Part shown: positions 5,791 to 31,494 of the stretch, in pieces
Position numbering within the stretch: position 1 is the first letter of the stretch
How the letters are laid out: every line of letters starts with the position of its first letter
Assembly: GCF_009936235.1 (NCBI RefSeq)
Contig: NZ_AP022314.1
Span: forward strand, 4,093,735 to 4,125,734
DNA length: 32,000 bases
Reading direction: 5' to 3'
From: Mycobacterium xenopi
Lineage (GTDB): Bacteria; Actinomycetota; Actinomycetes; Mycobacteriales; Mycobacteriaceae
Translations under genes and position numbers: made by a program
The notes under the pieces: generated by a model
Told to the model about the DNA's origin: nothing
Seen by the model: only the letters and a program-made list of their open reading frames with translations
The model's database searches: none

Positions 5791-5819
5791 CCGCGGCGCG
5801 GGAAGTTACCCTGGCCACC

Positions 5820-11673: not shown

Positions 11674-11736
11674 GGTGCCGGCCGATCGCGATCCGTCTCA
11701 TCTGCCCTACAGGTCCTCGCCGCGCGGCGTTGGCCC

Positions 11737-13347
11737 TCAAGCGCGCACGGCGCGCGCTGCCGCGGTAGCGACGTCACCGCGCAGATCCGAGATCGGTGAA
11801 CTGCCGCGCACGTGGATGGCGTTCGAGAGCAGGACCACGTAAGTATCTGAGCCTGGGTCCAGCCATAGCGAGGTCCCGGTGAACCCGGTGCTTCCAAAGC
11901 TGCCGACGGGAAACACCCTGCCGCGCGGCATCGAATATGGCGTATCGATATCCCAGCCGAAGCCGAACAGGTTCTGCCCCTTGATCGCTGGATACGTCTT
12001 CGCGATTGCTTGGCGGGCGGCGGCGTTGGCAGCGTCGAGTTGGTGGGCACTATGCCCGGGCTGCTGCGGAGTCGTCATCAACTCCAATGTCGTTCGCTTA
12101 AGCGGAAACATGCTCGGACGGCCTGCGAGCCGATCCAACAGGGCCTGCGCATAGATACCGACATCGTGCGCGGTCGAGAACACGCCGGCATGCCCGGCCA
12201 CTCCGCCCATGCGGCGTGCCGTCGGGTCATGCACAGTGCCACGAAGCAGGGCGTCGTAATCGGGGTTCTTGCCGGGATCGGCCCTGCTTTCTTCATCATG
12301 TGCTGTCGGTGCGATGCGCGTCAAAAGGCTTGCGCTCCAACTGCCTTCCGGGCAGTCGGTCGGCATGTGCCCGGGTGCCCAGACAACCGCCGCTCCCCTA
12401 GTCTGGTGTGGGCCACATGCTTTGGCGGCGGGAAGATAGCTAGTGTCTGTCATACCCAGCGGTGCAAAGATATTGCGCTGAGCATAAATGTCTTCGTCCT
12501 CGCCGGTGAGCTTTTCGAGCAGTGCGCCGAGCAATAAGTAGTTGATGTCGGAATAGCGGAAAACCTCACCGGGCGCCGCCTGCAGCGGCGTGGTGAGTGC
12601 CCGATGGATGCCTTCGGTCTTATCGACGGTGTCCAGTCCCCACGGATCTGCGAGGTTGACGTCTATCGGTTCGCCTGACGTGTGAGTCAGCAACATGCGA
12701 ACTGTCACCTGTGCGCGCTGCGGGTCGTTGGCCGGGTTGAAGTCGGGCAAATACCTCTGCACGGGATCGTCGAACTGCACCTTGTCTTGTTCATAGAGCT
12801 GCATGAGGGCGGTCGCCGTCGCCAGGCCCTTCGTCAGCGACGCGATGTCGAAGATGGTGTCCTCGGTCATCGGCTCGGCCGGTGCGGGCGATCCGTCCAG
12901 CCCCGGTTCGCCGGCCAGCTTGCGCGCACCGTACGCCTGATGGAAGACGACTTGGCCGCCGTGCCCGATCACCACCACAGCGCCCGGCAGCCGCTGTGCG
13001 GCAACCGCGTCGTTCATCAACGTGGAGACCGGCGCGAAGTCGGGGGCGGGCGACGGTTCTGGTGGCCGCGTCGCCTGCGCGCTCTCGCTTACGGTTGGGT
13101 GCGCTGCATTGATGGGTGCCGCAATCGGCGCCGGCGTTGCTTTGGCTTTGTCGCTTAGTTTTGTCTGCGCTTCGTGGCCACGCGCGCAACCCGCGGCGAG
13201 TGCAAGCACGACAGTCCCGACAGCAATGGCAATTCGCGCAGACGGCTTGCGGGCCGGGCCCCGCAGACCGGTCCGGGATCGATGAGAGCCGTCGCCGATG
13301 ATTACCCGTGTCAGCGTAGCGAGTCCGGCGGGTAGTCGCGGGAACAA
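11737..13347 (-). CDS. Beta-lactamase-related serine hydrolase / esterase, probable lipoprotein
   Basis: 536-codon ORF. SxxK active-site motif (FDIASLTKGLATATAL). N-terminal signal with lipobox VLALAAGC. The exact start is uncertain. Confidence 0.85.
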   Translation of the reverse strand: MFPRLPAGLATLTRVIIGDGSHRSRTGLRGPARKPSARIAIAVGTVVLALAAGCARGHEAQTKLSDKAKATPAPIAAPINAAHPTVSESAQATRPPEPSPAPDFAPVSTLMNDAVAAQRLPGAVVVIGHGGQVVFHQAYGARKLAGEPGLDGSPAPAEPMTEDTIFDIASLTKGLATATALMQLYEQDKVQFDDPVQRYLPDFNPANDPQRAQVTVRMLLTHTSGEPIDVNLADPWGLDTVDKTEGIHRALTTPLQAAPGEVFRYSDINYLLLGALLEKLTGEDEDIYAQRNIFAPLGMTDTSYLPAAKACGPHQTRGAAVVWAPGHMPTDCPEGSWSASLLTRIAPTAHDEESRADPGKNPDYDALLRGTVHDPTARRMGGVAGHAGVFSTAHDVGIYAQALLDRLAGRPSMFPLKRTTLELMTTPQQPGHSAHQLDAANAAARQAIAKTYPAIKGQNLFGFGWDIDTPYSMPRGRVFPVGSFGSTGFTGTSLWLDPGSDTYVVLLSNAIHVRGSSPISDLRGDVATAAARAVRA

Positions 13348-13675
13348 CGCGACAGGCCAGGGGCCGATGCGCGCGAGATCCGGTTCACTCGTTGTGCCTG
13401 CGCAGCGCTACCGTTCGCCTGAAGATCCACGGGCACACTCGTTTTCGTCCGCATTGCTGACTACTTGCGACGACGCCAGCACCGGGGTGGGCTGGGATTT
13501 GGTAGGTCCGCACGGCCGTGCCGCCTGGTGAATCGGTTCGCTGAGCCGCGTCTTCGCGCTCTTCACCGTCGACAACCTGCCCGCAGCACCTTCGAACTTG
13601 TTGACACTCTCGCGATGAGAGTCGACGTCGTCGACGATTACTGCAGCGTGAACACGTCGGTGGCTGCCGCATGCT

Positions 13676-13885
13676 TTAGGGGCGGTAGGCGGCCGTGACG
13701 TCGGTGTGGGCGAAATCGCCACCGACATACAGCAACGGCTCGCCGGTCACCGCGGCGAGCGCATAGGAATAGCAGTCGCCGAGGTTGAGTGCGCGCGGAA
13801 GTCCGCTGCCCCGGCCAAAGTCACGCTAGGCGCGGACGGCGATGGCGGCCTGCTCGGCGTGAAGGACCGGCTTCGTGATCCGCAG
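13676..13885 (-). pseudogene. VapC (PIN) C-terminal remnant with an in-frame TAG
   Basis: Minus-strand translation [66 protein letters not shown] aligns residue for residue with the C-terminal half of the intact VapC at 19357-19755. The stop at 13826-13828 replaces a Tyr codon. No N-terminal half is present. Confidence 0.6.
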
Positions 13886-13977
13886 ACTGAACGACGCCGG
13901 CCTCACGGGCAAGCAATTTAGATCGGCGAGGCCGTGGAGACCGACGCGAAGGGCCTGCGTGGCGGAATCTTCACTCG

Positions 13978-14069
13978 CCGATTTCTTCGCGGCCGTGGAA
14001 ATCGGCTCGGTCGCGGACCGCAATGCGTTGCATACGTTTACCGCGTCGATGGCGCCGCTCGTCGAGTGA
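13978..14069 (+). pseudogene. 3-prime remnant of a second FIST-family gene
   Basis: ADFFAAVEIGSVADRNALHTFTASMAPLVE-stop parallels the last ~30 residues of the intact FIST protein ([30 protein letters not shown]-stop at 11673). Nothing upstream is FIST-like. Confidence 0.5.
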
Positions 14070-14163
14070 GTCCCGCCTGCCACACCAGCCACCGTTGGCG
14101 GACGATTATGCGAAGTGCCCGCCTCCGAGCGACTTTCAGCGACAAACTAGCGACCGCCGGCGG

Positions 14164-14574
14164 TTATTGCGCGTCCGCACCCAGCCCCGGCACCTCCGAT
14201 GGGTGACGAACGTCGACGAGGTCATCGATGATCCGGAAGTCCCCTGCGTTGTGGGTCAGGAGCGGCACGCCGTGAACGTTTGCGGTAGCGGCGATGACGA
14301 GCTCGACCGAGCGGCGCCGCGGCCGGCCGCCCCGGTTGCGCACAGCGGCCGACAGCCGGCCCCATTCTCGCGCGACCTCGGCCGTGACCGGAAGCGGATC
14401 GAACGCGGATTCGATCGCGCCGAGCCGCGCCGTACGAAGCGCGCGTTCATCGTCGTCGGCTGCGACGAGAACGCCAAAGTGCAGCTCGGCAATCGAGGCA
14501 ACGCTGATCGCGGCCTCGACGCGCGAGGGCGGTTCCTCCCCGATAAGAACGGAGGTATCGACTATTGCGCGCAT
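14164..14574 (-). CDS. vapC: VapC toxin (PIN-domain ribonuclease)
   Basis: 136 codons. N-terminal acidic PIN motif MRAIVDTSVLI, later LLTHNAGDF. It lies 3 nt downstream of its antitoxin gene. Confidence 0.85.
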   Translation of the reverse strand: MRAIVDTSVLIGEEPPSRVEAAISVASIAELHFGVLVAADDDERALRTARLGAIESAFDPLPVTAEVAREWGRLSAAVRNRGGRPRRRSVELVIAATANVHGVPLLTHNAGDFRIIDDLVDVRHPSEVPGLGADAQ

Positions 14575-14844
14575 CGGTTAGTCGAACGGACCGGCCATCG
14601 AGGCGGGGAACCGCTTGAGGTCGGCGCCCAGTGTTTTGGGAGCCGGCGTGCGCCAGACCGCCCGCAACCCCGGCCCGCTGACCCACCGCTTCTGCATGGC
14701 GGGGCCAAGCTGCGCCACCGGCCGGCCTGCGACGGTGATCGTGATCTCCTCGCCCGCTTCTGCCCGGCGCAGAACCTCGCCGACGTTATTGCGGAGTTCC
14801 TTTTGGGGAATCGTTGCCATGACCACGATGGTAGGAGAACTGCT
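14405..14844. repeat. Copy 1 of a ~440-bp dispersed duplication (vapB plus 5-prime part of vapC)
   Basis: By eye this aligns base for base with 23521-23958. Differences are scattered substitutions and a 2-nt indel at the vapC start. Confidence 0.85.
14578..14826 (-). CDS. vapB: VapB antitoxin (Phd/YefM-like N-terminus)
   Basis: MATIPQKELRNNVGEVLRRAEAGEEITITVAGRPVAQLGP... The probable start is ATG 14820 (GTG 14826 is also possible). It sits immediately upstream of vapC. Confidence 0.85.
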   Translation of the reverse strand: MVMATIPQKELRNNVGEVLRRAEAGEEITITVAGRPVAQLGPAMQKRWVSGPGLRAVWRTPAPKTLGADLKRFPASMAGPFD

Positions 14845-14914
14845 ACCAGGACCGAGCCTGGCGCATACTACCCGAACGGGTCGGCAGCCGGAAACCGGTC
14901 AAGGTGCGGTCCGC

Positions 14915-17900
14915 TCAGGCGAGCAGACCCCGGATGTCGTCGGCGGTCAGGGCGGAGGCAAACACGTCACCGTCGTCGATCACGCTGGCGAACAGCTTGG
15001 CTTTGCGCGCGTTGAGGGCCAGCACCTTGTCCTCGATGGTGTCGCGGGCGATGAGCCGGTACACCATGACATTGCGGGTCTGGCCGATGCGGTGGGTGCG
15101 GTCGATGGCCTGGGCTTCGGTGGCCGGGTTCCACCACGGGTCGAGCAAAAAGCAGTAGTCGGCCTCGGTGAGGTTCACCCCGAACCCACCGGCCTTGAGG
15201 CTGATCAGGAAAACCGGTGCGTCCCCATCTTTGAACCGCCGTATCACGTTGGCGCGGTCGCGGGTTCGCCCGTCGAGGTAGCAGTAGCCGATGCCTTCGG
15301 CGTCGAGGCGACTGCGGACCCGGCCGAGGAAACGGGTGAACTGACTGAACACCAGCGCGCGATGGTCGCCGCCGACGACGTCGCGCAGCTGCTCGGCCAG
15401 CGCGTCGATCTTCGCGCTGGCCAGCGTGTCGTGTGCCGGGTCGACGAGCCCGGGGTGCAGCGCCATCTGACGCAGCACGGTCAGCGACTTGAGGATGGTA
15501 AACCGGTTGCGCTGCATGTCGTCTAACAGGCCAAGCACCTTCTGCCGCTCGCGGGCCAGCCGCTTGTCATACAGCGCCCGGTGCCGCGGCGGCAGCTCGA
15601 TATCGAGGATTTGCTCTTGCTTGGGCGGTAGCTCGGCGGCCACGAGCTCCTTGGTGCGCCGTTTGACCAGCGGCTTGATCCGGCGGCGTAACAGGGCCAA
15701 AAGCTCGGCGTCGCCGGTCTTTTCGATGGGCTTAGCGAAGTAGTCGGCGAACTTCACCGGGTGGGGGAATAACCCCGGGGCGGTGATCGACAGCAGCGAC
15801 CACAGCTCCATCAGATTGTTCTCCATCGGTGTGCCGGTGATCGCCAGCTTGAACGGTGCGGGCAGCCGGCGTGCGCACTGGTAGGTCTTGGCGTGGTGGT
15901 TCTTGACGTATTGGGCCTCGTCGAGGATCAGCCCGGACCACGTTCGGGCGGCGTGGGCGTCGAAGTCCAGCCGAAACAGCGTGTAGGAGGTGACCACGAT
16001 GTCGGCGCCCGCCGCCAGCTCGTCGAGGTCGACGCCGGCGCGGCGCAGCGTGTCGAAGATCGGTACCACCGACAGCTCCGGCGCGAACCGCGCGGCCTCG
16101 GCGGCCCAGTTCGCCACCACACTGGCCGGTGCGACGACAAGGAATGGTGCCATGGCCTGATTCTGTTGGCGGACATGGCAGATCAACGCCAGCGACTGGA
16201 CGGTCTTGCCCAGGCCCATGTCGTCGGCCAGGATCCCGCCGAGCCCGTGGGCGTGCAGGGTCGCCAGCCACGAGAACCCGTCGACCTGATACGGCCGCAG
16301 CTGCGCGCGCAGGCCGACCGGCACCGCCGTCGGTTCCAAGCCCTGCAGCGCCCGCAGCCCGCCGACCTGCCGCTGCCACGCCTTGGCCTGCCGCGTCACG
16401 ACTCCGAGCTCAGCCAGCTCGTCGAACAACCCGACCTGGAATCGGCTGATCCGGGGTGGTCCTTCGTCGGCATCGGTGAGCGCGCGGGCCTCTTCGATGA
16501 GCTGGCGCAGCTTCACCAACTCCGGCTTGTCCAGCGCGAAGTAGGCGCCGTCGGCAAGCAGCAGGTGCGATTGGCCGGACGCCAGCGCGGTGAACACGCT
16601 TACGAACGGAACCGCTTTGCCCTCAACGCTGATCGTGACACCCAGGTCGAACCAGTCCGTCTCGCCGGGCACCGCGTCGGTGCGCACCGCGATCACGAGC
16701 GAGCCGCCCGCTTCCCGGTAGTCGGCCGGGTCGCCGGTTACCTCCAGCGCGACGTCGGAAAGCTCTGCGAGCAGCGGTTGGAGTTCAGTGGCGAATCGCA
16801 TGGTGTCCACGCCGGAAAGCCGTGTTCCGGCGAGCGTGCCGTCGGCGCCGCGAAGCCCCCACTGCTCCAACGGAGCGTCGATGCTCGACGCAAGGGCGTA
16901 CTCCGCAGCCAGGTCTCGGTACGCAGCATGCTGCGGCGTGCCTGTCGGTACGCGAAAGCCGTTGTCGCCTAATCGATATTCCCATTCCCAGGCCAGCTCG
17001 AGTTCGTGGTCGGCCTGGTAGTGGGCCCGCAGCACCAGTGCCGGCCCGACGACCTCGGGCGGCGTGAACGACTCATCCGACGACGTGACGGCCGCGATGT
17101 GGCGCAACCTAGGGTAGTACTCCGTAGCGAACTGCGGCGCTTGGTCCGCCGGGATCACCAGCGGCTTATCACCGAGTGCCATGCGCTGCAACGCTTCCGG
17201 CACCGGCTGGTCCAGCCGCGCGAGCCGCAGCCCGCCGTCGGCATACACCGCGCCATGACCTGACGACCCGATGAACGCGATGGGCCGTGTCGCGGTGCCT
17301 TCGACGTTCAGCACGGGCGTGACGGTGAGGTCGCCCGTCGTGCCGGCTGTCACATCCAGGCACAACCGCGCGGTGGCGTACGTCGGAACGTCCTGCCAGG
17401 GGCGTGGCTGCAGCAACCGCACCCCGACTCGTCGCGCTTCGTCCAGTAGCGGCCACAGCTGGGGTGAGTCGAATCGCAGCAGCGCCATCGTCTTCTCGTC
17501 GCCGTACGAATACCCGTAGTAGACAGTCGAATTCGAGCGCGACGTCCGGTACGTCGCATACAGTTCCTGCAGCAGCCGGACCTGAGCGGCGGGATAATCG
17601 CTGTAGCGCAGCATGTGCAGCCTGTCCCAGCGCAGGTCGCCTGCGACCCAGCCGCCGCGCTTGCCGGGCCGCACCAGCCGTGCGTCCAGGGCCGGCGACC
17701 GCCCGCTCACCGACAAGCTGAGCTCGATCGCCAGCGGTGTCCCGATGCGATCGTTCGCCGGGGCCGACGGAAGCAACGCATCCAGCGACTGCCGCCAAGG
17801 CGGCGGAGCTGGCGAAGGCGACGCCGGCTTGATGGTGGCTTCTGCGGCCGTGGCGACGATCGCGGCGACATGCTTGCAGTTGAAGTGCACCGGGCAGCTG

Positions 17901-18139
17901 CAAGATCCAGTGTCAAAGCACCAGGTGCGGGTGTCGAACGGCACCAGCCGCACCGTGGTGGTGTAGGGACGGGGCTGGTTACCGCGAACTATGCCGAAAA
18001 GGTTGCGCAGCTTCGGATCCCACCGGCAGCCCAGCACCCGCCCCTGGCGCGCGTACGCTAGGCCGCGGCGCCAGGTCTCGGTGTCAAGCTCGTCGAACGT
18101 GCTGTCCAGGTCGATCTGCGGATACGCCGGTGACTGCAT
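14915..18139 (-). CDS. SWIM zinc-finger / SNF2-family helicase (HelZ-like)
   Basis: 1074 codons from ATG 18139. SWIM motif CSCPVHFNCKHVAAI near the N-terminus. SNF2 core: LADDMGLGKT, LILDEAQYVKN, LAITGTPMENN, VFSQFTRFL, GGFGVNLTEADYCFLLDPWWNP, QAIDRTHRIGQ. The track ORF extends to 18682, but that part overlaps the divergent gene. Confidence 0.9.
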   Translation of the reverse strand: MQSPAYPQIDLDSTFDELDTETWRRGLAYARQGRVLGCRWDPKLRNLFGIVRGNQPRPYTTTVRLVPFDTRTWCFDTGSCSCPVHFNCKHVAAIVATAAEATIKPASPSPAPPPWRQSLDALLPSAPANDRIGTPLAIELSLSVSGRSPALDARLVRPGKRGGWVAGDLRWDRLHMLRYSDYPAAQVRLLQELYATYRTSRSNSTVYYGYSYGDEKTMALLRFDSPQLWPLLDEARRVGVRLLQPRPWQDVPTYATARLCLDVTAGTTGDLTVTPVLNVEGTATRPIAFIGSSGHGAVYADGGLRLARLDQPVPEALQRMALGDKPLVIPADQAPQFATEYYPRLRHIAAVTSSDESFTPPEVVGPALVLRAHYQADHELELAWEWEYRLGDNGFRVPTGTPQHAAYRDLAAEYALASSIDAPLEQWGLRGADGTLAGTRLSGVDTMRFATELQPLLAELSDVALEVTGDPADYREAGGSLVIAVRTDAVPGETDWFDLGVTISVEGKAVPFVSVFTALASGQSHLLLADGAYFALDKPELVKLRQLIEEARALTDADEGPPRISRFQVGLFDELAELGVVTRQAKAWQRQVGGLRALQGLEPTAVPVGLRAQLRPYQVDGFSWLATLHAHGLGGILADDMGLGKTVQSLALICHVRQQNQAMAPFLVVAPASVVANWAAEAARFAPELSVVPIFDTLRRAGVDLDELAAGADIVVTSYTLFRLDFDAHAARTWSGLILDEAQYVKNHHAKTYQCARRLPAPFKLAITGTPMENNLMELWSLLSITAPGLFPHPVKFADYFAKPIEKTGDAELLALLRRRIKPLVKRRTKELVAAELPPKQEQILDIELPPRHRALYDKRLARERQKVLGLLDDMQRNRFTILKSLTVLRQMALHPGLVDPAHDTLASAKIDALAEQLRDVVGGDHRALVFSQFTRFLGRVRSRLDAEGIGYCYLDGRTRDRANVIRRFKDGDAPVFLISLKAGGFGVNLTEADYCFLLDPWWNPATEAQAIDRTHRIGQTRNVMVYRLIARDTIEDKVLALNARKAKLFASVIDDGDVFASALTADDIRGLLA

Positions 18140-18277
18140 GCCCGTACCGTAACGATCGGGTCTGACAACGAGCCGCGACACGCGCACGTGGTGCAGATGA
18201 GGTTTGACAGCCTGGCGTGACACGAAATGTTTGGGGGCGGCCCGCGCGGCCTTGCGGGAATCGGCAGACTCTGATTC

Positions 18278-19267
18278 ATGGCAGAGTTGCTGATCGCGGT
18301 GAACCCCGATGAGGATTCCCGGCTGCCGTATCTGCTGCGGATTCCGCAACCCGGTGGCGACCTGCTGTTTCGGACCGCGGGCACCTGGCCGCGGGTCAAG
18401 GCGCTGTACTGCTACCCGGTCAGCCTCGACGAGTGGCCCGCCGACCCCGTGATCGTCGAACGCGTTGCGCTGCGGTCGTGTCAGCGCCGGGGCGCGGCGA
18501 TCGACCTGATTGTGCAGCGGTCGAGGGAGAACCGCTCCCAGCTGGTGTTCACCACCGCCCGGGGCCGCGACGCGGTGTTTTGGCAATCGCCGCGCACCCG
18601 CAAGCAGGCCCGTCCGAATGTGCGCACCCCGACCGCCCGTGCCCAGGGCATCGAAGAACTGCAGATTCTCATCGACGCGCACGAGCAGTACGCCTACCGG
18701 TTTGCCGCCCAGCAGGCCAGCACTGTGCGGCGGGCGCTGCCGTGCGGCGACTACGGGCTCGTCGTCGACGGGCTATTGGTGGCCAGCGTGGAACGCAAAT
18801 CGCTGGCCGATCTGGTGGCCAGCCTGACCGGCGGCAAGCTGCGGTATCAGGTCGCCGATCTGGCCGCGCTGCCGCGCGCTGCGGTTGTCGTGGAGGACCG
18901 CTACTCACAGCTGTTCAAGCTCGACCGGGTCCGTCCCGCCGTGGTCGCCGACGGGCTGGCAGAGCTCCAGGTCCGCTGGCCCAACGTGCCGGTGGTGTTC
19001 TGCGAGACCCGCCAGCTCGCCGAGGAGTGGACCTACCGGTTCCTCGCCGCCGCGCACGTGTGGGCTGTTGGTGAAGGCGCAGCGCTGCAACGTATCTCAC
19101 CGATGCGGATCGACATCAGCGAACTCCATCTTGCGGCCGCCGCGCCGGAACCGAGCACCGCCGAGGTCCGCGCCTGGGCGCGCGCCGCCGGCCTACCAGT
19201 TCCCGAGCGCGGCCGCCTGCGCCCCGACATCTGGCAGGCGTGGCACGACGCCAACGACGCGACCTGA
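18278..19267 (+). CDS. Three-part protein: unplaced N-terminal domain, ERCC4 (XPF/Mus81-type) nuclease core, Lsr2-like C-terminal DNA-binding domain
   Basis: 329 codons. ERCC4 signature ILIDAHE...LPCGDYGLVVDG...ASVERKSLADLVASLTGGKLRYQ...AAVVVED. The tail STAEVRAWARAAGLPVPERGRLRPDIWQAWHDA parallels the Lsr2 C-terminus. It diverges from the SNF2 gene across 138 bp. Confidence 0.8.
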   Translation: MAELLIAVNPDEDSRLPYLLRIPQPGGDLLFRTAGTWPRVKALYCYPVSLDEWPADPVIVERVALRSCQRRGAAIDLIVQRSRENRSQLVFTTARGRDAVFWQSPRTRKQARPNVRTPTARAQGIEELQILIDAHEQYAYRFAAQQASTVRRALPCGDYGLVVDGLLVASVERKSLADLVASLTGGKLRYQVADLAALPRAAVVVEDRYSQLFKLDRVRPAVVADGLAELQVRWPNVPVVFCETRQLAEEWTYRFLAAAHVWAVGEGAALQRISPMRIDISELHLAAAAPEPSTAEVRAWARAAGLPVPERGRLRPDIWQAWHDANDAT

Positions 19268-19356
19268 GGGGCGCCGATGCCGGACACCCTCGGCCCAGGG
19301 TCCGTCCAGAGGAAACTACATCTGGGGGTGCAGCGTCGAAGGCGGACTGGCGTTGC

Positions 19357-19755
19357 TCATGGACGGTGAGCGGCCGAGATGTCGGTGTGGACGAAATCGT
19401 CACCCACGTACAGCAATGGTTCACTCCTCACCTTGGCGAGCGCATAGGAGTAGCAGTCGCCGAGGTTGAGCGCCGCCGGGTGCCCGCTGCCCCGCCCGAA
19501 GTCAAGGTAAGCCCGGCTGGCGATTTCAGCCTGCTCGGTGTCGAAGGGCACCAGTTCGATCTCCCACTCATCCAGTAGTCGCTCGACCCGGCGCAGATCC
19601 TCTGGGCGCAAGCGCCGCGCCAGGACGGCGTTGACCTCCACCATGGTGGCCGCCGACATCTTGGGCGCCGTCGCATCCACGAGGAGCTCGGCGAGCTGTT
19701 CCGCGTGCGTTGCACCACGCACAATCGCAACGATCGCCGAGGTGTCGACGATCAC
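19357..19755 (-). CDS. vapC: VapC toxin (PIN-domain ribonuclease)
   Basis: 132 codons. MIVDTSAIVAI..., [24 protein letters not shown]. There is a 4-bp overlap with the upstream antitoxin gene. Confidence 0.9.
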   Translation of the reverse strand: MIVDTSAIVAIVRGATHAEQLAELLVDATAPKMSAATMVEVNAVLARRLRPEDLRRVERLLDEWEIELVPFDTEQAEIASRAYLDFGRGSGHPAALNLGDCYSYALAKVRSEPLLYVGDDFVHTDISAAHRP

Positions 19756-20030
19756 GACGGCAAGCCGGCCTGGTCGTAGAGCTCTCGTTCCGCGTCCTTG
19801 AGCTGCGCTCGCTCCACGTCGGTCAGCGAACTATGCAGTTCATTCAGCAATTGACGCACACGGGCGTGTCGCCTCTCGCGCCGGCGCTGCGTATCGGTCT
19901 GGTCGCGATCCAGCTCGGCCAGTTTGGCGCGCACCGCTTCGGTGATCGCAGCCGTTTGGGTCAATCCCGTCCTCTTGGCGAGCTCGCGAACCAATGCGGT
20001 GGTTTCTTCGTTCTTGATGTTCAGGCCCAT
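19752..20030 (-). CDS. vapB: VapB antitoxin, Rv0623-like (PSK-type) transcription-factor family
   Basis: 92 codons. The N-terminus MGLNIKNEETTALVRELAKRTGLTQTAAITEAV is typical of the Rv0623-like antitoxin family. Overlaps the vapC start. Confidence 0.85.
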   Translation of the reverse strand: MGLNIKNEETTALVRELAKRTGLTQTAAITEAVRAKLAELDRDQTDTQRRRERRHARVRQLLNELHSSLTDVERAQLKDAERELYDQAGLPS

Positions 20031-20066
20031 GGTAGAAGTCTACCTTTTGCAGGTACCTGTTATATA
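20031..20066 (-). promoter_or_regulatory. Putative vapBC promoter/operator: inverted repeats plus an A/T-rich -10-like element
   Basis: Directly upstream of the vapB ATG. GGTAGA-AG-TCTACC at 20031-20044, a perfect 10-bp palindrome CAGGTACCTG at 20050-20059, and TATATA at 20061-20066. Confidence 0.4.
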
Positions 20067-20076
20067 CTACGTCGGG

Positions 20077-20166
20077 TTGTCAGTCGACCGCGTTGTTACC
20101 TACGACGAACGCCTCCTCAACGCTGCAACGGCAGTCGGCCTACCGACCACTGTTCCGGGCCGCTGA
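20077..20166 (+). pseudogene. Possible C-terminal remnant of another PIN/VapC gene
   Basis: ...VDRVVTYDERLLNAATAVGLPTTVPGR-stop resembles VapC C-terminal ends. No upstream PIN sequence is present. Confidence 0.3.
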
Positions 20167-20507
20167 GGTTAGCAGCGAATCGTAGGTTTGACGGCTCAGC
20201 GTCACCATCGCGCCGATCCGCGCTCTCCGGGATCGAGTGACGTATGGCCGACTTCGGTCATTTCTGTACACCATCACGCTGCCGGTCCATGATGCAAAAA
20301 GCCTGCACTGTCGCGACCATTCAGCGACAAGCCGGCTCGCCGGACCCGACGAGGCAGCGCCGGCGGTTGGCTTCATTGCCAGTGCAGCGGCAGGCTAGCG
20401 CGCCAGTACCGTGCCGCGGATCGACCGCAGCATGCCGATGCCGCCGGTTTGCCTGCACGGCAAGCTGTTTGCAGTCGTTGACCGGGGACGCGAGTACAGT
20501 AGCTCCG

Positions 20508-22055
20508 ATGGCTGTCGCTCCATCGAATGAGCGGATGATCACCGGCGTCGTCGCCGCGTCCATCGCGCTCGGGGTAGCCCAGCTGGTGGGCATCCCGTTC
20601 GGTGCGCGGGCCGATGCGCGCGCCGCGATCGGCTCAGTGGCCGTCGACCTGACACCGGGGCCCATCAAAGAGTTGGCGATTCAGACCCTGGGCTCTTTGG
20701 ACAAAGTCTTCGTGGCCGTCGTCGTGCTCGTGGTGATCGCCACGATCGCCGCAATCGCCGGGACCCTCGAGACTCGGCGCCGCCCGCTCGGCAGCGCCGT
20801 GATCGCCGCGGCGGGCGTCCTCGGATGCATCGCAGTGTTGTCGCGGCAGGGTGCGACAGCACTCGACACCATCCCCACCTTCGCGGGCGCCGCCTGCGGC
20901 GTGGCGGTCCTTCGCTTGCTCACCCGTCGGTTCGGGCCCGGCCTGGGAGACCCGGAAGACCAAGCCCACCACGACGAGCCGGATACCGGCAGGCGCAGGG
21001 TGGTCATGTTCGGGTTGCTCGGATTCGGAGTGGCGAGCGGCGTGGTCGGTGCGGTCATCACGCGGTTGGTGCACTCGGTGGCCGCTGACCTCAACAGCTT
21101 CGCACTTCCCCGACCGCGCATATCGGCGCGACCGATACCTGCGGATGTGCAACCGAAAGGCGTTGCGCTACCGAGCTTTATCACCGCGAGCGCCGACTTT
21201 TACCGGGTGGACACCGCACTCAGTGTTCCCCAACTCAGCCACGGCGACTGGCGGCTGCGCATCCACGGCATGGTGGACCGCGAAGCCACCTACAGCTTTG
21301 ACGACCTGGTCCACTTCGACGTCGTCGAAACGGTGACGACGTTAACCTGCGTATCGAATCCCGTTGGTGGCAATCTGATTTCGACGGGCATCTGGACCGG
21401 CTACCGGGTGGCTGATCTGCTCGCGGCTGCCGGTGTGCACGCGGACGCCGACATGGTGCTCTCGACGTCGATCGACGGGTTCACCGCCGGCACGCCCGTG
21501 GAGGCGCTCACCGATGGCCGCGACGCGCTCCTGGCGGTCGGCCTCAACGGGCAGCCGCTGCCGATCGAGCATGGCTACCCGGCCCGGCTGGTGGTACCCG
21601 GGCTCTACGGGTACGTGTCGGCCACCAAGTGGGTCGTCGAGATGGAGCTGACCCGTTTCGACAGAGCAGAGGCGTACTGGACGCGGCAGGGCTGGGCACC
21701 GCGTGGACCCGTCAAGACCGAGTCGCGGATCGACGTGCCGAGACGTGGTCAGAAAGTGCCGATGGGGCCCGTGGTGTTTGGCGGTGTCGCGTGGGCACAA
21801 AATCGCGGGGTGCGGGCCGTGGAAGTCCGTATCGACGATGGCGTGTGGCAGCCCGCTGAACTGGGCGCGAGCTATTCCAACGACACATGGCGGTTGTGGA
21901 GCTTCCCCTGGCAGGCGAAAAGCCCTGGGAAACAAAGCATCACCGTGCGCGCCACCGACAACACCGGAGCTACCCAGACTGCAGATCAGGTTGATACCGT
22001 ACCCGACGGCGCCACCGGCTGGCACACGGTGGACTTCACCGTGGCCGAGACATGA
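20508..22055 (+). CDS. Membrane-anchored molybdopterin-dependent oxidoreductase (sulfite-oxidase family)
   Basis: 515 codons from ATG 20508. The N-terminal third is hydrophobic (several TM helices). The Moco-binding region includes YPARLVVPGLYGYVSATKWVVEMELT and an Ig-like C-terminal dimerisation-type domain. Confidence 0.85.
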   Translation: MAVAPSNERMITGVVAASIALGVAQLVGIPFGARADARAAIGSVAVDLTPGPIKELAIQTLGSLDKVFVAVVVLVVIATIAAIAGTLETRRRPLGSAVIAAAGVLGCIAVLSRQGATALDTIPTFAGAACGVAVLRLLTRRFGPGLGDPEDQAHHDEPDTGRRRVVMFGLLGFGVASGVVGAVITRLVHSVAADLNSFALPRPRISARPIPADVQPKGVALPSFITASADFYRVDTALSVPQLSHGDWRLRIHGMVDREATYSFDDLVHFDVVETVTTLTCVSNPVGGNLISTGIWTGYRVADLLAAAGVHADADMVLSTSIDGFTAGTPVEALTDGRDALLAVGLNGQPLPIEHGYPARLVVPGLYGYVSATKWVVEMELTRFDRAEAYWTRQGWAPRGPVKTESRIDVPRRGQKVPMGPVVFGGVAWAQNRGVRAVEVRIDDGVWQPAELGASYSNDTWRLWSFPWQAKSPGKQSITVRATDNTGATQTADQVDTVPDGATGWHTVDFTVAET

Positions 22056-22059
22056 AGCA

Positions 22060-22260
22060 CTATTTCGACGAGAGTTTCCGCCAACTGAATACCGCAATCA
22101 CGATGCCGATCAGCACCGTGATCGGACCAATGATGGACCAGGTCGTGGTGTTGCTCATCGGGCTACCACTAAGCACTCCGAATCCCTGGAGCGCCCAGAT
22201 CAGACCGAACACCGCGACGATCAACCCGACCGCGAACACAACGACGAAAGCCCTTCTCAT
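22060..22260 (-). CDS. Small hydrophobic protein (two predicted TM helices)
   Basis: 66 codons, MRRAFVVVFAVGLIVAVFGLIWALQGF...IIGPITVLIGIVIAVFSW. Reasonable GC3. No recognisable family. Confidence 0.5.
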   Translation of the reverse strand: MRRAFVVVFAVGLIVAVFGLIWALQGFGVLSGSPMSNTTTWSIIGPITVLIGIVIAVFSWRKLSSK

Positions 22261-22358
22261 ATGAGGATGCTATGCGCGAGCGCCGAGGCTCGTTCGGCCG
22301 ATGTCGCCGATCAGCTCCATCGTTGGATGAGCACGCCGACACCGACGGGCGAGCCCGG

Positions 22359-22751
22359 CTACGGCTGGCCCGCCGCGACGGGCAATCCGAGCTCGGCTGC
22401 TCGAGCGGCGAGTTTGTCGTCGAAGGTGGCGATCGCGGCGTTGTACTGTTCCGCGCTGTAAAGCACGCAGCAGTCCGGCATCTTCAAACTGGTTGTAGCG
22501 CGCAACTCACCGAGACGGCGGGCAGCGCTGGCCGGAAGTTCCAGGCTCTCGATCTGCAACCGCGCCAGCAGCTGGTGAAGCCGGTCGGCTTGTGCGGCCC
22601 GGGCGGCCCCGACGTAGACCTCCGCGAGGGTGATCACGCTGGCGGCGAACGACTCTGCCGCGTGCGCCGCGAGTAGTCCGGTGGCTTCGGCGTGGTGGGC
22701 GTCGGCCGACTCGAAATGACCGATCAAAACGCTGGCATCGAGGATGATCAC
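22359..22751 (-). CDS. vapC: VapC toxin (PIN-domain ribonuclease)
   Basis: 130 codons. MIILDASVLIGHF..., later IATFDDKL. There is a 4-bp overlap with the upstream small gene. Confidence 0.85.
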   Translation of the reverse strand: MIILDASVLIGHFESADAHHAEATGLLAAHAAESFAASVITLAEVYVGAARAAQADRLHQLLARLQIESLELPASAARRLGELRATTSLKMPDCCVLYSAEQYNAAIATFDDKLAARAAELGLPVAAGQP

Positions 22752-23017
22752 TCGGGCCAGTCCTCACGCAGCTCCCTGAGATAGTCACTTCCGAAGACCC
22801 CGGCCAGCGCGCCACTGGTAGTTTCGACCGCTCGGCAGCGTGCGCGGGTGCCTGCAGCATCGTTGTGGGCGAGGGTATTCCGACCAACCAAGATGAGTTG
22901 GCGCAGCAGCGCGCCCGGCTTGTGGGCAAGGTCGGGCCAGGTGCGGCGGGCGATCTCCAGTGCGTTGCTGATCTCGTCGGTCTCGGTGATGGCGTGGCGC
23001 CGGCGATGGGTCGGCAT
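22748..23017 (-). CDS. Putative cognate antitoxin of the 22359-22751 VapC
   Basis: 89 codons from ATG 23017 (MPTHRRRHAITETDEISNALEIARRTWPD...). Assigned by position and overlap with vapC. The track ORF start at 23095 is less likely. Confidence 0.7.
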   Translation of the reverse strand: MPTHRRRHAITETDEISNALEIARRTWPDLAHKPGALLRQLILVGRNTLAHNDAAGTRARCRAVETTSGALAGVFGSDYLRELREDWPE

Positions 23018-23024
23018 CGTTATA

Positions 23025-23053
23025 GTGTAACACCCACTTGATCGGTGTAACAC
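23025..23053. promoter_or_regulatory. Two copies of the palindromic 9-mer GTGTAACAC, 20 bp apart (putative operator)
   Basis: GTGT-A-ACAC at 23025-23033 and 23045-23053. The first copy lies 8 bp upstream of the antitoxin ATG. The centre-to-centre spacing is about two helical turns. Confidence 0.35.
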
Positions 23054-23132
23054 TTCCTCGAGCATGGTCAGAGTGCGCCCCGAGCTTGCGAGCACGCCGC
23101 ACGATGTCAGCCGCCGCGGCTACATTTCGGTC

Positions 23133-23699
23133 ATGAAGCGCTCTTCGCGTCCTCGCAGCACCGCACCGGGTGTCGCAGTGTTCTTCGCCGTGCTCCTGAT
23201 CATCGGGCTGATCGTGAAGTTCTTCTGGTGGTTGATCGCGGCGGCCGCGGTGGCCGGGCTGTTCTTCGCGGCCCGCGCCGTTGTCCGCAAAGTGCGTGAG
23301 CGCCGGGCTGCTGCCGCCCGCGAGGCAGAGGAAATCGCGTACCGCGCAGACCGCCAAAACCAATGGGCTCGGCGCGGGGACAGCCGAGGTACCTACGGCG
23401 TCGCGGGCGCCGAGCTGATGCGCTCGATCTCACCCGAGCCGCCGCCGCTGACCCCCGACGCGGACGACTCGGAAATCAAGATCGCCGAAGTTGTCGACAC
23501 CAAAGACGGCTTAGCCAAATGCGGATTCGATCGCGCCGAGCCGCGCCGTACGAAGCGCGCGTTCATCGTCGTCGGCTGCGACGAGAACGCCAAAGTGCAA
23601 CTCGGCAATCGACGCAACGCTGATCGCGGCCTCGACGTGCGAAGGCGGTTCCTCCCCAATAAGGACGGAGGTGTCGACTACTGCGCATCGGTTATTTGA
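23133..23699 (+). CDS. Membrane protein of unknown family, 3-prime end replaced (chimeric read-through)
   Basis: MKRSSRPRSTAPGVAVFFAVLLIIGLIVKFFWWLIAAAAVAGLFFAARAV... has two TM helices and then a charged region. From 23521 the ORF runs antisense through the duplicated vapC fragment, so the last ~60 codons are not native. Confidence 0.5.
   Translation: MKRSSRPRSTAPGVAVFFAVLLIIGLIVKFFWWLIAAAAVAGLFFAARAVVRKVRERRAAAAREAEEIAYRADRQNQWARRGDSRGTYGVAGAELMRSISPEPPPLTPDADDSEIKIAEVVDTKDGLAKCGFDRAEPRRTKRAFIVVGCDENAKVQLGNRRNADRGLDVRRRFLPNKDGGVDYCASVI
23511..23688 (-). pseudogene. vapC: Truncated, frameshifted vapC copy
   Basis: Homologous to the first ~58 codons of vapC 14164-14574. ATGCGCAGTAGTCGAC replaces ATGCGCGCAATAGTCGAT (2-nt loss after codon 2). 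Homology ends at 23521 and a TAA follows at 23511-23513. Confidence 0.75.
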
Positions 23700-23958
23700 A
23701 CGGACCCACCATCGAGGCGGGGAATCGCTTGAGCTCGTTGCTCAGTGTTTTCGGAGCCGGCGTCCGCCAGACAGCTCGCAACGCCGGACCGCCGACCCAT
23801 CGCTTCTGCATGGCCGGGCCCAGCTGCGCCACTGGCCGGCCTGCGACGGTGATCGTGATCTCCTCGCCCGCTTCTGCCCGGCGCAGAACCTCGCCGACGT
23901 TATTGCGGAGTTCCTTTTGGGGAATCGTCGCGATGACCACGATGGTAGGAGAACTGCT
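23521..23958. repeat. Copy 2 of the ~440-bp vapB/vapC-5-prime duplication
   Basis: See 14405-14844. Both edges are sharp breaks in similarity. The left edge truncates the membrane-protein ORF and the right edge truncates a MazG-like gene. Confidence 0.85.
23692..23940 (-). CDS. vapB: VapB antitoxin paralogue (apparently intact, orphan)
   Basis: 82 codons. By my count it differs from the 14578-14826 product at 8 positions. The internal ATG of copy 1 is ATC here, so GTG 23940 is the only nearby start. Confidence 0.8.
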   Translation of the reverse strand: MVIATIPQKELRNNVGEVLRRAEAGEEITITVAGRPVAQLGPAMQKRWVGGPALRAVWRTPAPKTLSNELKRFPASMVGPFK

Positions 23959-24233
23959 GCCAAGCTAACGACGTCCTCGCGTCCCGATGGGCGCTGAGTG
24001 ACCCTCGGTGGCACCGGCTGGGCTTCGACGCTGGCGGCGGCCTCATCGATGGCGGCCTCATCGATGGCGGCCTCAGGGGTGCAAGGGGCGATGAGTTCGT
24101 CGACCTCTTCGCGCACCTTGTGGTGCGGTGTGGCGCGGTATTCGTCCAGGCGTAGCGCATCCATCGAAAGACCGCTGCCACTGGCCCATCGGCGGGTGTC
24201 TCGGAATTTGTCACGGCACTCAGCGCCCCTCAT
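23959..24233 (-). pseudogene. MazG-like (PRA-PH-type) nucleotide pyrophosphohydrolase, 3-prime truncated
   Basis: From ATG 24233: MRGAECRDKFRDTRRWASGSGLSMDALRLDEYRATPHHKVREEVDELIAPCTPEAAIDEAA... This parallels GKLVRDKIPDIIRASGRTPHV...LREEVDEL...IDEAADIIEV of the copy at 27235. It ends at the duplication edge. Confidence 0.5.
24036..24075. repeat. 15-bp tandem repeat GGCGGCCTCATCGAT, about 2.7 copies
   Basis: Units at 24036-24050 and 24051-24065, with a partial unit at 24066-24075. On the minus strand it encodes the AIDEA-AIDEA duplication inside the MazG-like remnant. Confidence 0.8.
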
Positions 24234-24466
24234 TTGCGGTTGGGGTGCCAGACGATCGGCGACCAGATGTGGTCGGAATAGTTGGACCGGCCGCCTTCGG
24301 CCCATTGGTTGCGCACTTTCCACGGAAACCACATCTGGGAGCGCGCACCGATGATGAGCGAGCCGCATGGGGTGCAAATGTGCACGCGGGGGGCGCCGTA
24401 TTTCCGGCAGGTGGGCTCCCGGCTCAGCCACCCACAGCCGTGGATGCGCCACTTATTTGTCGTCAT
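24230..24466 (-). CDS. Small Cys/Trp-rich protein of unknown function
   Basis: 78 codons from ATG 24466 (88 from GTG 24496): MTTNKWRIHGCGWLSREPTCRKYGAPRVHICTPCGSLIIGARSQMWFPWKVRNQWAEGGRSNYSDHIWSPIVWHPNRK. Very high GC3. Its TGA overlaps the ATG of the MazG-like remnant (ATGA). Confidence 0.5.
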   Translation of the reverse strand: MTTNKWRIHGCGWLSREPTCRKYGAPRVHICTPCGSLIIGARSQMWFPWKVRNQWAEGGRSNYSDHIWSPIVWHPNRK

Positions 24467-24559
24467 CTTGTCGCGGGTTAGCCGCCGCCGCGGCACTTGT
24501 AGGTGAGGACAGTCTTAGCACTGTGGACAAGCGGACCCGAGCCTCTACTACCGGTATGG

Positions 24560-25867: not shown

Positions 25868-25976
25868 GACTGACAGTCTGCCGCCATGCACCGACAACGG
25901 CTGAAGTGCAATTGGCGCCCGGACGAGCCGGACTAACGCAGCACTGGTTGTCGGTCGCTTTGGCTAGGTTTCGGCC

Positions 25977-26531: not shown

Positions 26532-26789
26532 AACACCTAAGCAAATTGGCTACGCAGAGGGAAGGTTTCATACTTACGCCCGCGTTCCCAGACTTTTGGA
26601 CCCTGGGGTGATAAAAGCACTGCTGATGCCGACGGCATCGTAATGAGACATTCATCGACGATTTGGTGGAACGTATCGCTGAGTTACCGGATGTGATGCG
26701 CTACGGACGTGGGATTATCCAGAGCGATCAATCCTGGCTTGCTGCACATGGATGTCGACAATCGGCTCACCGAACGCATACGTAAGCAG

Positions 26790-27235: not shown

Positions 27236-27305
27236 GCTGTCCCTCTCCTTCGCAATAATGCGGTGGTGCAGTTCTATACCGTCGGAATGACATCGACGGT
27301 GCGCC

Positions 27306-28867: not shown

Positions 28868-28947
28868 CCGTGCTCAGATAGGTGTAGGGGTCGGACCGAG
28901 GCGCGGTGTCGGCATTTCTGCCAATCCGTTTCCCCGGCCCGCCCTCC

Positions 28948-28981: not shown

Positions 28982-28990
28982 TCCACGGAT

Positions 28991-31443: not shown

Positions 31444-31494
31444 CCGGTAAGCTTCTACCGGTGCTGTTCGGAGACGAAGAAGGCCGCGGCTTTT

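Follow-up and report, generated by a model that had tools for sequence, protein, structure and literature searches.

The gene at 18278–19267 (+) of the window, that is, of the whole stretch of 32,000 nucleotides that was analysed, encodes a Mycobacterium xenopi protein of 329 amino acids in which an XPF/Mus81/Hef-type (ERCC4) nuclease domain is joined to a DNA-binding tail of the kind found in the xenogeneic silencer Lsr2. The reading that we prefer, and that we hold with slightly less than even confidence, is that of a mobile, structure-specific nuclease for which the tail serves as an anchor or targeting module in place of the (HhH)2 domain, probably with a role in conflict. Should targeting by the tail prove true, no earlier case would exist of a xenogeneic-silencer reading head reused to direct DNA cleavage, and the protein would also be a rare bacterial use of an XPF/Mus81 nuclease. 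What is at stake, then, is a new defence principle versus a repair nuclease of the ordinary sort whose DNA clamp is unusual. The literature searched contained no paper combining "Lsr2" and "ERCC4" and no description of the nuclease family.

Domain architecture of the protein

The reading frame is complete: it opens with an ATG at 18278, downstream of an in-frame stop at 18272, and it closes with a stop codon (19265–19267) placed directly after the codons of the tail (19154–19264). Its GC3 is 0.85, its product is 100% identical to the annotated M. xenopi protein (P0001), and the AF2 model of the 329 residues has a mean pLDDT of 90.3.

The nuclease domain occupies the middle of the chain (18659–19072, +; aa 128–265). 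Pfam ERCC4 (PF02732) matches residues 132–255 with an E-value of 4.9e-20, and a Foldseek comparison aligns the domain with Hef (1j22; target TM 0.81, rmsd 2.6), with XPF and Mus81 matched as well. The catalytic signature (D..E ... GDY ... ERK...D) is complete, being made up of D133, E136, G157-D158-Y159, E172-R173-K174, and D178; across 26 diverse relatives, G157, D158, E172, and R173 are invariant, and D133, E136, Y159, K174, and D178 are invariant or nearly so. Judged by this conserved motif, the domain is catalytically intact, in keeping with the initial annotation, which had described the protein as an Lsr2-type tail fused to an ERCC4 nuclease. XPF, Mus81, and Hef (1j22, 2bgw, 6sxa, 4p0p) have the same nuclease fold and the full GDXnERKX3D-type active site. 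Unlike them, the M. xenopi protein carries an Lsr2-type domain instead of (HhH)2 (a Pfam search of the 329 residues at E up to 10 returned no HhH family), has no helicase or helicase-like domain in the chain, begins with a phosphoesterase-like barrel, and is the product of a bacterial gene found on mobile elements.

This N-terminal β-barrel (18278–18610, +; aa 1–111) is predicted by AF2 with pLDDT >90 over aa 1–100. Its best fold match in the PDB by Foldseek is 3p43 (query and target TM 0.64, probability 1.0), with 3p4h at TM 0.52, and the predicted fold of the first 111 residues is that of the LigD 3'-phosphoesterase (3p43, 3p4h, 3n9b). Unlike the latter, the barrel gives no significant match by sequence or profile, and its identification as a LigD phosphoesterase on sequence grounds was rejected: it has no Pfam match, LigD_N included (35 members), and no significant match to PDB sequences by HMM, while hhalign against an alignment of LigD phosphoesterases covers 17 columns only, at a non-significant E-value of 0.04. 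What remains is the fold match. The hhalign alignment does contain a short local resemblance over D-x-SRL-x-Y-x-LRL, in which, on a reading by eye, the His/His/Asp ligands of QKHdasrlHyD are replaced by N9, P17, and L19. With the metal ligands replaced, the barrel should not be a phosphoesterase; it resembles one in its modelled fold, the link being one Foldseek match. Such a dead phosphoesterase-like barrel might plausibly sense a 3' end or a primer–template junction. It is followed by a basic linker (18611–18658, +; aa 112–127) that is conserved but disordered: R112, P113, and P118 are nearly invariant, and pLDDT falls below 50 at aa 113–119.

A second linker, this one variable and flexible (19073–19147, +; aa 266–290; block-mean pLDDT 61–81), leads from the nuclease to the tail. 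The initial annotation had assigned the last 37 residues to Lsr2's C-terminal DNA-binding domain, by comparison with an Lsr2 sequence that it quoted, and had pointed to a shared RGR motif; each of these points was borne out. Positions 19154–19264 (+) translate exactly to STAEVRAWARAAGLPVPERGRLRPDIWQAWHDANDAT, the last 37 residues of the protein, and the quoted Lsr2 sequence is correct when set against the Lsr2 chains in the PDB. Pfam Lsr2_DNA-bd (PF23359) matches residues 292–325 with an E-value of 8.2e-9 and 35.1 bits, above its gathering cut-off of 26.9, and the 37-mer taken alone reaches 38.9 bits (E 5.5e-10). A phmmer search of PDB sequences aligns residues 291–325 with the Lsr2 chains 2kng, 6qkp, and 6qkq at E ~0.05, free of gaps and with 14 of the 35 residues identical. 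In the AF2 model the domain (19148–19255, +; aa 291–326) is a separate helix–loop–helix on a low-confidence linker, with helices at 294–303 and 316–326 and a block-mean pLDDT of 90–96 across aa 291–320. By alignment, the loop R311-G312-R313 (19208–19216, +) is the counterpart of R97-G98-R99 in Lsr2 of M. tuberculosis, with the same R..W.R helix and the same spacing.

Could such a short match be due to chance? An alignment of 74 distinct orthologs, drawn from many orders of Actinobacteria, shows that R298, W300, A301, and G312 (100%) are invariant, R311 is kept in 97%, and residue 313 is R or K in 99%. Entropy amounts to 2.24 bits in the linker before the tail, 0.95 in the tail, and 0.66 in the ERCC4 domain. 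Invariant positions in the tail next to a freely varying linker indicate that the match to Lsr2 is more than chance, and, on this alignment, conservation of the tail comes close to that of the catalytic domain. Among 80 related loci, the Lsr2-type tail is kept in about 76. In H-NS and Lsr2 the Q/RGR motif inserts into the minor groove (PMC7074111); for the tail, we infer a preference for AT-rich minor grooves only from its conserved contact-type residues. Unlike in Lsr2, the domain of the M. xenopi protein is attached to a nuclease, and some relatives lack the RGR.

Domains of this type also occur on other partners. Cluster J mycobacteriophages (Omega, Corndog) encode Ku joined to the C-terminal domain of Lsr2; in these proteins of DNA-repair type, too, that domain, RGR included, makes up the final ~30 residues (PMC8612146). 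There the partner is the end-binding Ku and the fusion is encoded by phages, whereas the nuclease family is absent from phage records. In the PADLOC collection the protein has a single match, between its tail and the C-terminal end of a type II methyltransferase model. On the evidence of these matches, the Lsr2 domain is a portable module, and its presence on Ku and on the methyltransferase model fits a generic DNA anchor.

Spread of the gene on mobile elements

Read from its surroundings in many genomes, the nuclease gene travels as a passenger on mobile elements across Actinobacteria. In six related loci (L010, L011, L018, L020, L022, and L057), IS3-type inverted repeats of 28 nt flank orfA, orfB, and the nuclease gene, with matching target duplications of 3–4 bp at six different sites, and the same arrangement recurs on metagenome contigs, in at least nine places among the 21 contigs examined. 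Several loci present, in this order, two tyrosine recombinases, a small DUF6262 protein, and the nuclease, with overlapping stops and starts. Going by this order, the nuclease gene is the fourth and final gene of a recombinase operon in some loci, and we take these operons to be Tn554-like from the gene order of that transposon. The passengers of "transporter" IS and Tn554-type elements are usually resistance, regulatory, or toxin–antitoxin genes, and the literature searched contained no ERCC4 nuclease as a passenger of an IS or transposon. Unlike such passengers, the M. xenopi copy lies outside any recognisable mobile element, and no IS3 inverted repeat was found around it in the window, with up to 3 mismatches allowed. 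This position is a point against the reading that we prefer.

The gene is also present on 26 plasmid records, including the pMUM virulence plasmids, and some of the plasmid copies are named "histone-like nucleoid-structuring protein Lsr2" by NCBI. The name would suit an antagonist of Lsr2, namely, an element-encoded protein that contends with the host's own Lsr2 over AT-rich DNA, by counter-silencing or "stealth", and whose nuclease is secondary or inactive; homologs of xenogeneic silencers are often encoded by plasmids, phages, and islands (PMC7074111, PMC8612146). Against this stands the absence of the N-terminal dimerisation/oligomerisation domain of Lsr2: Pfam at E up to 10 gives only ERCC4 and Lsr2_DNA-bd, and the β-barrel and the nuclease make up residues 1–290. 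The NCBI label reflects the tail only, and silencing filaments would not be formed by that route. In addition, purifying selection acts strongly on the catalytic residues, which would be pointless in a pure competitor, and we give the antagonist very little credence.

As for phages, a tblastn search with the whole protein found the gene in 0 of 50,697 phage records, and a phage origin was rejected on this basis; the tail alone gave 3 weak matches in the same records. The gene is found among toxin–antitoxin modules and other island genes. The three unrelated kinds of mobile element, the toxin–antitoxin surroundings, and the absence from phage records together point to a role in conflict, be it defence or competition between elements, which we regard as more likely than one in the transposition chemistry of a single element or in core repair.

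Clustered at 90% identity, the family comprises ~7,000 protein clusters, and it occurs in at least 578 species. Identity is 66–75% between different actinobacterial classes, and conservation within Mycobacterium reaches 80–90%. The latter value speaks against our preferred reading, being unusual for fast-evolving defence genes. High conservation is in favour of another reading, a recombination or repair nuclease that resolves flaps, forks, or junctions on behalf of either the host or the carrier element, with the Lsr2 domain acting as a non-specific clamp that substitutes for (HhH)2 and provides no targeting. A repair role of this kind would agree with the intact ERCC4 fold and motif, with an N-terminal fold common to an end-healing NHEJ domain, with the RecB/RecD-like genes present in the window, and with the fusion of the Lsr2 domain to the end-joining protein Ku (PMC8612146). 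It agrees less well with the distribution of the gene: phages often encode junction resolvases, yet none of the phage records holds this one, and the carriers differ in their transposition chemistry (DDE-type IS3, tyrosine-recombinase elements, plasmids). The gene is also dispensable and patchy, with neighbours that vary. In M. tuberculosis, Rv2102 is presumably the ortholog of the M. xenopi nuclease. Some strains have lost the helZ–Rv2102 region by deletion (PMC2590607, PMC12817950). On balance, we consider repair rather unlikely as the main task of the protein.

Anchor, address, or reader of base composition

How would a mobile nuclease of this kind work? In the reading that we prefer, the gene product would be a stand-alone bacterial XPF/Mus81/Hef (ERCC4) nuclease, spread by mobile elements and, by analogy with other ERCC4 nucleases, homodimeric. 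It would cut branched or junction DNA, such as flaps, forks, and nicked junctions. The Lsr2 tail would stand where (HhH)2 usually follows the ERCC4 domain and, held on a variable linker of ~25 residues, it could act as a tethered minor-groove anchor, making the nuclease locally more concentrated on duplex DNA. The tail probably shares the bias of Lsr2 toward AT-rich tracts; in that case, the nuclease would be sent to DNA occupied by Lsr2, that is, to AT-rich islands and to replicating phage or plasmid DNA.

A bolder version of the same idea is that one mobile gene suffices for an innate immunity that works "by address" and not by sequence. The tail would bring the junction-cutting nuclease to DNA marked by Lsr2, namely, to AT-rich incoming DNA and the phage-replication zones organised by Lsr2, where replication and recombination intermediates would be destroyed, and the AT-rich islands of the host would be shielded by Lsr2 filaments. 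We consider this version a long shot.

The initial annotation had proposed something different, namely, that cleavage is directed by base composition. On that proposal, composition is read by the tail, AT-rich foreign duplex is cut by the nuclease instead of being silenced, and one gene would provide a restriction-like immunity for which no methylation and no recognition sequence are required. The retained RGR loop and Lsr2 spacing speak for it, as do the location of the gene on IS elements, transposons, and plasmids, among toxin–antitoxin modules and island genes, and its occurrence in no phage record. The C-termini of the relatives are of further help: they are Lsr2-type, winged-helix (MarR_2, HTH_DeoR), a longer GIY-YIG-like extension (assigned by eye from motifs), or absent, so that clades exchange one C-terminal domain for another, for example for a winged helix, in the manner of a specificity or targeting module. 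Counts of these tail classes in 150 representatives are unreliable, since many of the latter are frameshifted metagenome fragments.

The same variants also count against a reader of composition, because relatives in which the tail lacks the RGR, or in which there is no tail at all, keep the nuclease. The characterised ERCC4 nucleases are structure-specific and cut DNA junctions; they are not known to cut a duplex picked by its sequence or composition. Furthermore, the genomes of mycobacteriophages are about as GC-rich as those of their hosts, which makes composition a poor discriminator. The gene also travels alone: its neighbours differ at nearly every locus, and no recurrent partner emerged among the clustered neighbours of the related loci, hence none that could protect the AT-rich islands present in every high-GC host. 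The Lsr2 domain on Ku and on the methyltransferase model, as seen above, fits an anchor of a generic kind. Finally, the nuclease part has no match among the models of PADLOC-DB 2.0, which led us to reject a known defence system, and a literature search on ERCC4 and anti-phage defence returned only unrelated work on McrBC. Cutting directed by composition is, in our judgement, improbable.

Neighbouring genes and the start of the nuclease gene

The divergent neighbour of the nuclease gene, 138 bp away, encodes a HelZ-like SNF2 helicase of 1074 aa (14915–18139, −; start codon at 18139; Pfam SNF2-rel_dom and Helicase_C). The two products might be the halves of a split helicase–nuclease machine, analogous to archaeal Hef or to a ZorD-type SNF2–nuclease defence. 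Some observations would suit such a machine: HelZ scores high against the PADLOC models DpdE and ZorD, a different SNF2 helicase takes the position of HelZ in one related locus (L002), and Rv2102 adjoins helZ in M. tuberculosis (PMC2590607, PMC3570532). The comparison of loci points the other way. By tblastn, a HelZ homolog is found within 6 kb of the nuclease in just 3 of 80 related loci (L002, L023, and L024), and on this count we rejected a partnership with HelZ as a general explanation; the "gene pair" of which the initial annotation spoke is not conserved. Moreover, the IS3, Tn554-like, and plasmid copies move without a helicase, and the divergent orientation leaves no co-transcription. 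We therefore hold the split machine to be very unlikely; to judge from the loci compared, the adjacency of HelZ is lineage-specific and lies outside any conserved system.

On the other side, a convergent toxin–antitoxin pair, VapC (PIN) and VapB (Rv0623-like), follows at 19357–20030 (−; Pfam PIN and PSK_trans_fac), and the arrangement of nuclease and VapBC is repeated in other M. xenopi assemblies.

Upstream of the nuclease gene, an E. coli-type promoter scan gave no promoter. There is, 7 nt 5' of the ATG, a −10-like hexamer, CAGACT (18265–18270, +), and it suggests a leaderless transcript. This suggestion draws on hexamer statistics over 79 loci rather than on the E. coli-type scan: a NANNNT hexamer ends 5–9 nt 5' of the start codon in 53 of them, whereas a control offset gives 5 of 79. 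In the related loci, conservation 5' of the gene ends ~20 nt before the start, regardless of the neighbouring gene; as far as these alignments tell, the promoter-like hexamer moves together with the nuclease gene.

The nuclease and its Lsr2-type tail

Window positions 19154-19264 (+) translate to STAEVRAWARAAGLPVPERGRLRPDIWQAWHDANDAT, followed by a stop codon, and this peptide forms the C-terminus of a 329-aa open reading frame (18278-19267) that has an in-frame stop just 5′ of its start, a GC3 of 0.85, and a product with 100% identity to an annotated Mycobacterium xenopi protein. The initial annotation had described this tail as an Lsr2 DNA-binding domain, RGR motif included, fused to an ERCC4 nuclease, and the searches bear this out. 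In Pfam, residues 292-325 score 35.1 bits for Lsr2_DNA-bd (PF23359; E 8.2e-9), above the gathering score of 26.9, and the isolated 37-mer gives E 5.5e-10. In a phmmer search of PDB sequences, residues 291-325 align gap-free to the Lsr2 chains 2kng, 6qkp, and 6qkq (14/35 identical), with R298, W300, and R302 opposite the R-W-R of Lsr2 and R311-G312-R313 opposite its RGR; the Lsr2 sequence given in the initial annotation was also correct. PHROG families with Lsr2-like annotation match the tail as well. For H-NS and Lsr2, the Q/RGR loop has been described as inserting into AT-rich DNA by way of the minor groove (PMC7074111).

The AlphaFold2 model, for which 150 relatives were used (mean pLDDT 90.3), divides into five parts: a beta-rich N-terminal domain (residues 1-111), a basic linker that is conserved yet disordered (112-127), the nuclease domain (128-265), a low-confidence linker (266-290), and the tail. 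Modeling of the latter had been proposed as a check, and it gives a confident helix-loop-helix with the RGR in the loop (helices 294-303 and 316-326).

As for the nuclease, Pfam places an ERCC4 domain at residues 132-255 (E 4.9e-20), and Foldseek matches the fold in the PDB to the Hef nuclease 1j22 (target TM 0.81, rmsd 2.6 Å), as well as to XPF and Mus81. When 26 diverse full-length relatives are aligned, G157, D158, E172, R173, and E206 are invariant and D133, Y159, and K174 nearly so; with E136 and D178 these residues complete the ERCC4 active-site signature, and the nuclease is therefore predicted, from its sequence, to be active. Could the protein instead be an antagonist of Lsr2? Such a role would leave the conserved active site unexplained, and we find it hardly credible. 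Pfam detects no helix-hairpin-helix family in the protein, and the Lsr2-type domain sits where XPF, Hef, and Mus81 carry their tandem helix-hairpin-helix domain, (HhH)2.

For the N-terminal domain, Pfam and the PDB yield no relative by sequence. Modeled alone (pLDDT 87), its best structural matches are the archaeal homologs of the LigD 3′-phosphoesterase (PE) 3p43 (TM 0.64, prob 1.0) and 3p4h. Profile-profile comparison with PE sequences from the PDB search yields a nonsignificant alignment of only 17 columns, around D-x-SRL-x-Y-x-LRL; in our reading of this local alignment, N9, P17, and L19 stand where the PE motif has its His/His/Asp ligands. One fold match thus suggests a PE-like barrel that would lack phosphoesterase chemistry.

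The protein belongs to both the ERCC4 and the Lsr2_DNA-bd families, and since precomputed Pfam annotations assign both to all 120 best homologs, the two-domain architecture is already on record. Lacking an oligomerization domain, it is not an Lsr2 protein; nor is it a canonical XPF or Hef, because (HhH)2 and a helicase domain are both missing. NCBI names are "ERCC4 domain-containing protein" or, misleadingly, "Lsr2"; for instance, the label "histone-like nucleoid-structuring protein Lsr2" on the full-length plasmid matches H18 and H20-H22 suits only their last ∼35 residues. In the literature searched, no paper was found that names both "Lsr2" and "ERCC4", no ERCC4 defense nuclease was found, and Rv2102, the putative M. 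tuberculosis ortholog, appears in deletion tables only. Both the fusion and the gene's mobility are genuine and have gone unstudied: this ERCC4 nuclease, widespread, mobile, and fitted with an unusual combination of two accessory domains, is uncharacterized.

Conservation of the tail and modularity of the C-terminus

A scan of one genome per species found relatives in at least 578 species. The best 80 loci, which were kept, have 66-91% identity and come from Mycobacteriales, Pseudonocardiales, Micromonosporales, Propionibacteriales, Acidimicrobiia, and Solirubrobacterales; about 76 of them retain the tail, in the form PST[AS]EVRAWAR..G..VP[DE]RG[RK]LRP[ED][IV]W.AW. Over 74 distinct full-length orthologs, column entropy is 0.66 bits in the ERCC4 domain, 0.95 bits in the tail, and 2.24 bits in the linker before it; R298, W300, A301, and G312 are invariant, R311 is conserved in 97%, and position 313 is R or K in 99%. 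From this combination of low entropy, fixed residues, and a variable linker, the sequences indicate that the tail is a domain under selection on a free tether.

For the wider family, a search of 1.84 billion representative proteins returned 2,223 clusters at E ≤1e-3, and 333 at the stricter E ≤1e-30. The N-terminal barrel and ERCC4 core are constant, and the C-terminus is modular. It may be Lsr2-type, may consist of Lsr2-like helices without RGR (the relatives P0126 and P0174), may be a winged-helix domain (MarR_2 and HTH_DeoR matches), may, in one member (P0141), extend further and carry what look by eye like GIY-YIG motifs, or may be absent, leaving a protein of ∼270 aa. The P0126 and P0174 subclades keep both tail helices (VRCWAR...LWEAWRR), with ENEAVR or EHEPIR in place of RGR, so minor-groove insertion may not be the tail's only role.

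Portability extends to the Lsr2 domain itself: in PADLOC, the C-terminus of a type II methyltransferase model matches the tail, and cluster J mycobacteriophages encode a Ku-Lsr2 fusion (PMC8612146). A modular family C-terminus and a portable Lsr2 domain together make the C-terminal domain an exchangeable DNA-binding module, which fits a targeting role and a generic anchoring role equally.

Mobile carriers and possible roles

Three kinds of carrier hold the gene: an IS3-family element, a Tn554-like operon, and plasmids. In the first (locus L018:4621-7083; also L010, L011, L020, L022, and L057), 28-nt inverted repeats, TGAACCGTCCCGGGTTTTATGCGCACCT and AGGTGTGCATCAAACCCGGGATGYYTCA, bracket orfA, orfB, and the ERCC4-Lsr2 gene, which lies between orfB and the right repeat. 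Each of six insertion sites, all different, shows a matched target-site duplication of 3-4 bp (gttc, gga, gac, atg, ccc, and gtg), which indicates that the whole unit transposes. On metagenome contigs (at least 9 places, from 21 contigs read), a protein with 89% identity to the window's lies behind the same transposase; there is no IS3 repeat near the copy in the window. At L020:2152-5583, the IS3 orfB is interrupted by a tyrosine recombinase element of three genes (399, 316, and 346 aa) that has 96-nt inverted repeats (95% identity), so that one element lies within another.

The second carrier, which we liken to Tn554 by its gene order, is an operon with overlapping stops and starts (L029:572-5490; also L026, L079, L019, and L068), in which tyrosine recombinases of 434 aa and 720-850 aa and a DUF6262 protein of 140 aa precede the ERCC4-Lsr2 gene, placed last. 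Finally, 26 plasmid records carry the gene, among them M. intracellulare and M. avium plasmids (21-39 kb), pMUM002 and related M. ulcerans-group plasmids, and plasmids of Rhodococcus, Streptomyces, and Pseudonocardia; its neighbors there include resolvase, IS21, integrase, HipA, and RelE genes. A HipA toxin with an HTH partner and a Ser/Thr protein kinase flank it, in differing orientations, on a Mycolicibacterium peregrinum chromosome and a Rhodococcus plasmid (L104:6232-11721 and L084:4846-11936).

The gene also appears to bring its own promoter. Upstream conservation ends ∼20 nt 5′ of the start codon, regardless of what lies beyond, and 53/79 loci have a NANNNT hexamer whose end lies 5-9 nt ahead of the start codon, versus 5/79 at a control offset; in the window it is the −10-like CAGACT (18265-18270), 7 nt 5′ of the ATG. 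This placement suggests a leaderless transcript and a promoter that travels with the gene.

What, then, might the protein do? By analogy with other ERCC4 enzymes, it would dimerize and cut ss/ds junctions of branched DNA. In place of (HhH)2, the dimer's two tails would anchor it in the minor groove of the flanking duplex, probably with a preference for AT-rich tracts, so that the enzyme would gather where Lsr2 gathers. The PE-like barrel, presumably dead, may recognize a 3′ end or a primer-template junction. An ordinary nuclease of repair or recombination, whose anchor is generic, seems rather unlikely to us, as it would leave the mobile, patchy, phage-free distribution unexplained. The gene is retained by DDE-type, tyrosine-recombinase, and plasmid carriers alike, lies among toxin-antitoxin modules, and is absent from all phage records searched; these features argue for a role in conflict (defense or competition between elements) over core repair or the chemistry of one transposon. 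We tentatively favor, at somewhat less than even confidence, a mobile, Lsr2-addressed junction nuclease acting in such conflict, in which the Lsr2 addressing is an attractive idea.

The initial annotation had proposed that base composition directs the cutting of foreign duplex, a mechanism that has plausibility in its support and nothing beyond. Against it, characterized ERCC4 enzymes are structure-specific, phage GC content resembles that of the host, relatives without the tail or without RGR exist, and the clustered neighbors include no recurrent partner gene able to protect AT-rich islands of the host. We judge it improbable.

Genomic neighborhood and the HelZ question

In the window, a HelZ-like SNF2 helicase gene (18139-14915, −; 1074 aa) diverges from the ERCC4-Lsr2 gene at 138 bp, and a VapBC pair lies downstream of the latter; the order is the same in other M. 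xenopi assemblies. In M. tuberculosis, helZ adjoins Rv2102, and a 1.77-kb deletion spans both in some strains (PMC2590607, PMC3570532, PMC12817950). A conserved gene pair with a helicase does not hold up, because a HelZ-like gene lies within 6 kb in only 3/80 loci, and one of these, L002, holds a different SNF2 helicase. With synteny failing, a split helicase-nuclease machine with HelZ is very unlikely. Clustering of neighboring ORFs from the 80 loci gave no conserved partner gene; the neighbors that recur are tyrosine recombinases, in 13 loci, and IS3 transposase genes, in 7-8.

At L002, from a Mycobacterium MAG, an ERCC4-Lsr2 gene with 89% identity to the window's diverges from the SNF2 helicase (2817-6026, −), which has 39% identity to the C-terminal half of HelZ and a ZorD/DpdE-like core. 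This arrangement may be a coincidence or a lineage-specific link. The window's HelZ-like helicase matches the PADLOC DpdE model PDLC02851 over its full length (E 7e-228), and no other dpd genes occur among the window proteins scanned; the model may describe the HelZ-like family rather than the Dpd system.

An island rich in toxin-antitoxin and mobile-element genes (∼11700-31500) surrounds the ERCC4-Lsr2 gene. Within it are four PIN toxins and their antitoxins, an IetA-like AAA protein (∼24560-25867, −), an HNH protein (∼27306-28520, +), an rve fragment, a group II intron reverse transcriptase (from ∼28991, −), and an HTH_21 transposase fragment (30949-31443). Other M. xenopi assemblies have, in the same region, three further PIN toxins, the IetA-like AAA and HNH proteins, the transposase fragment, and the reverse transcriptase. 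At the left end of the window (225-5290, +) are genes for a RecB-like protein (UvrD helicase and PD-(D/E)XK nuclease, 1098 aa) and a RecD-like protein (647 aa).
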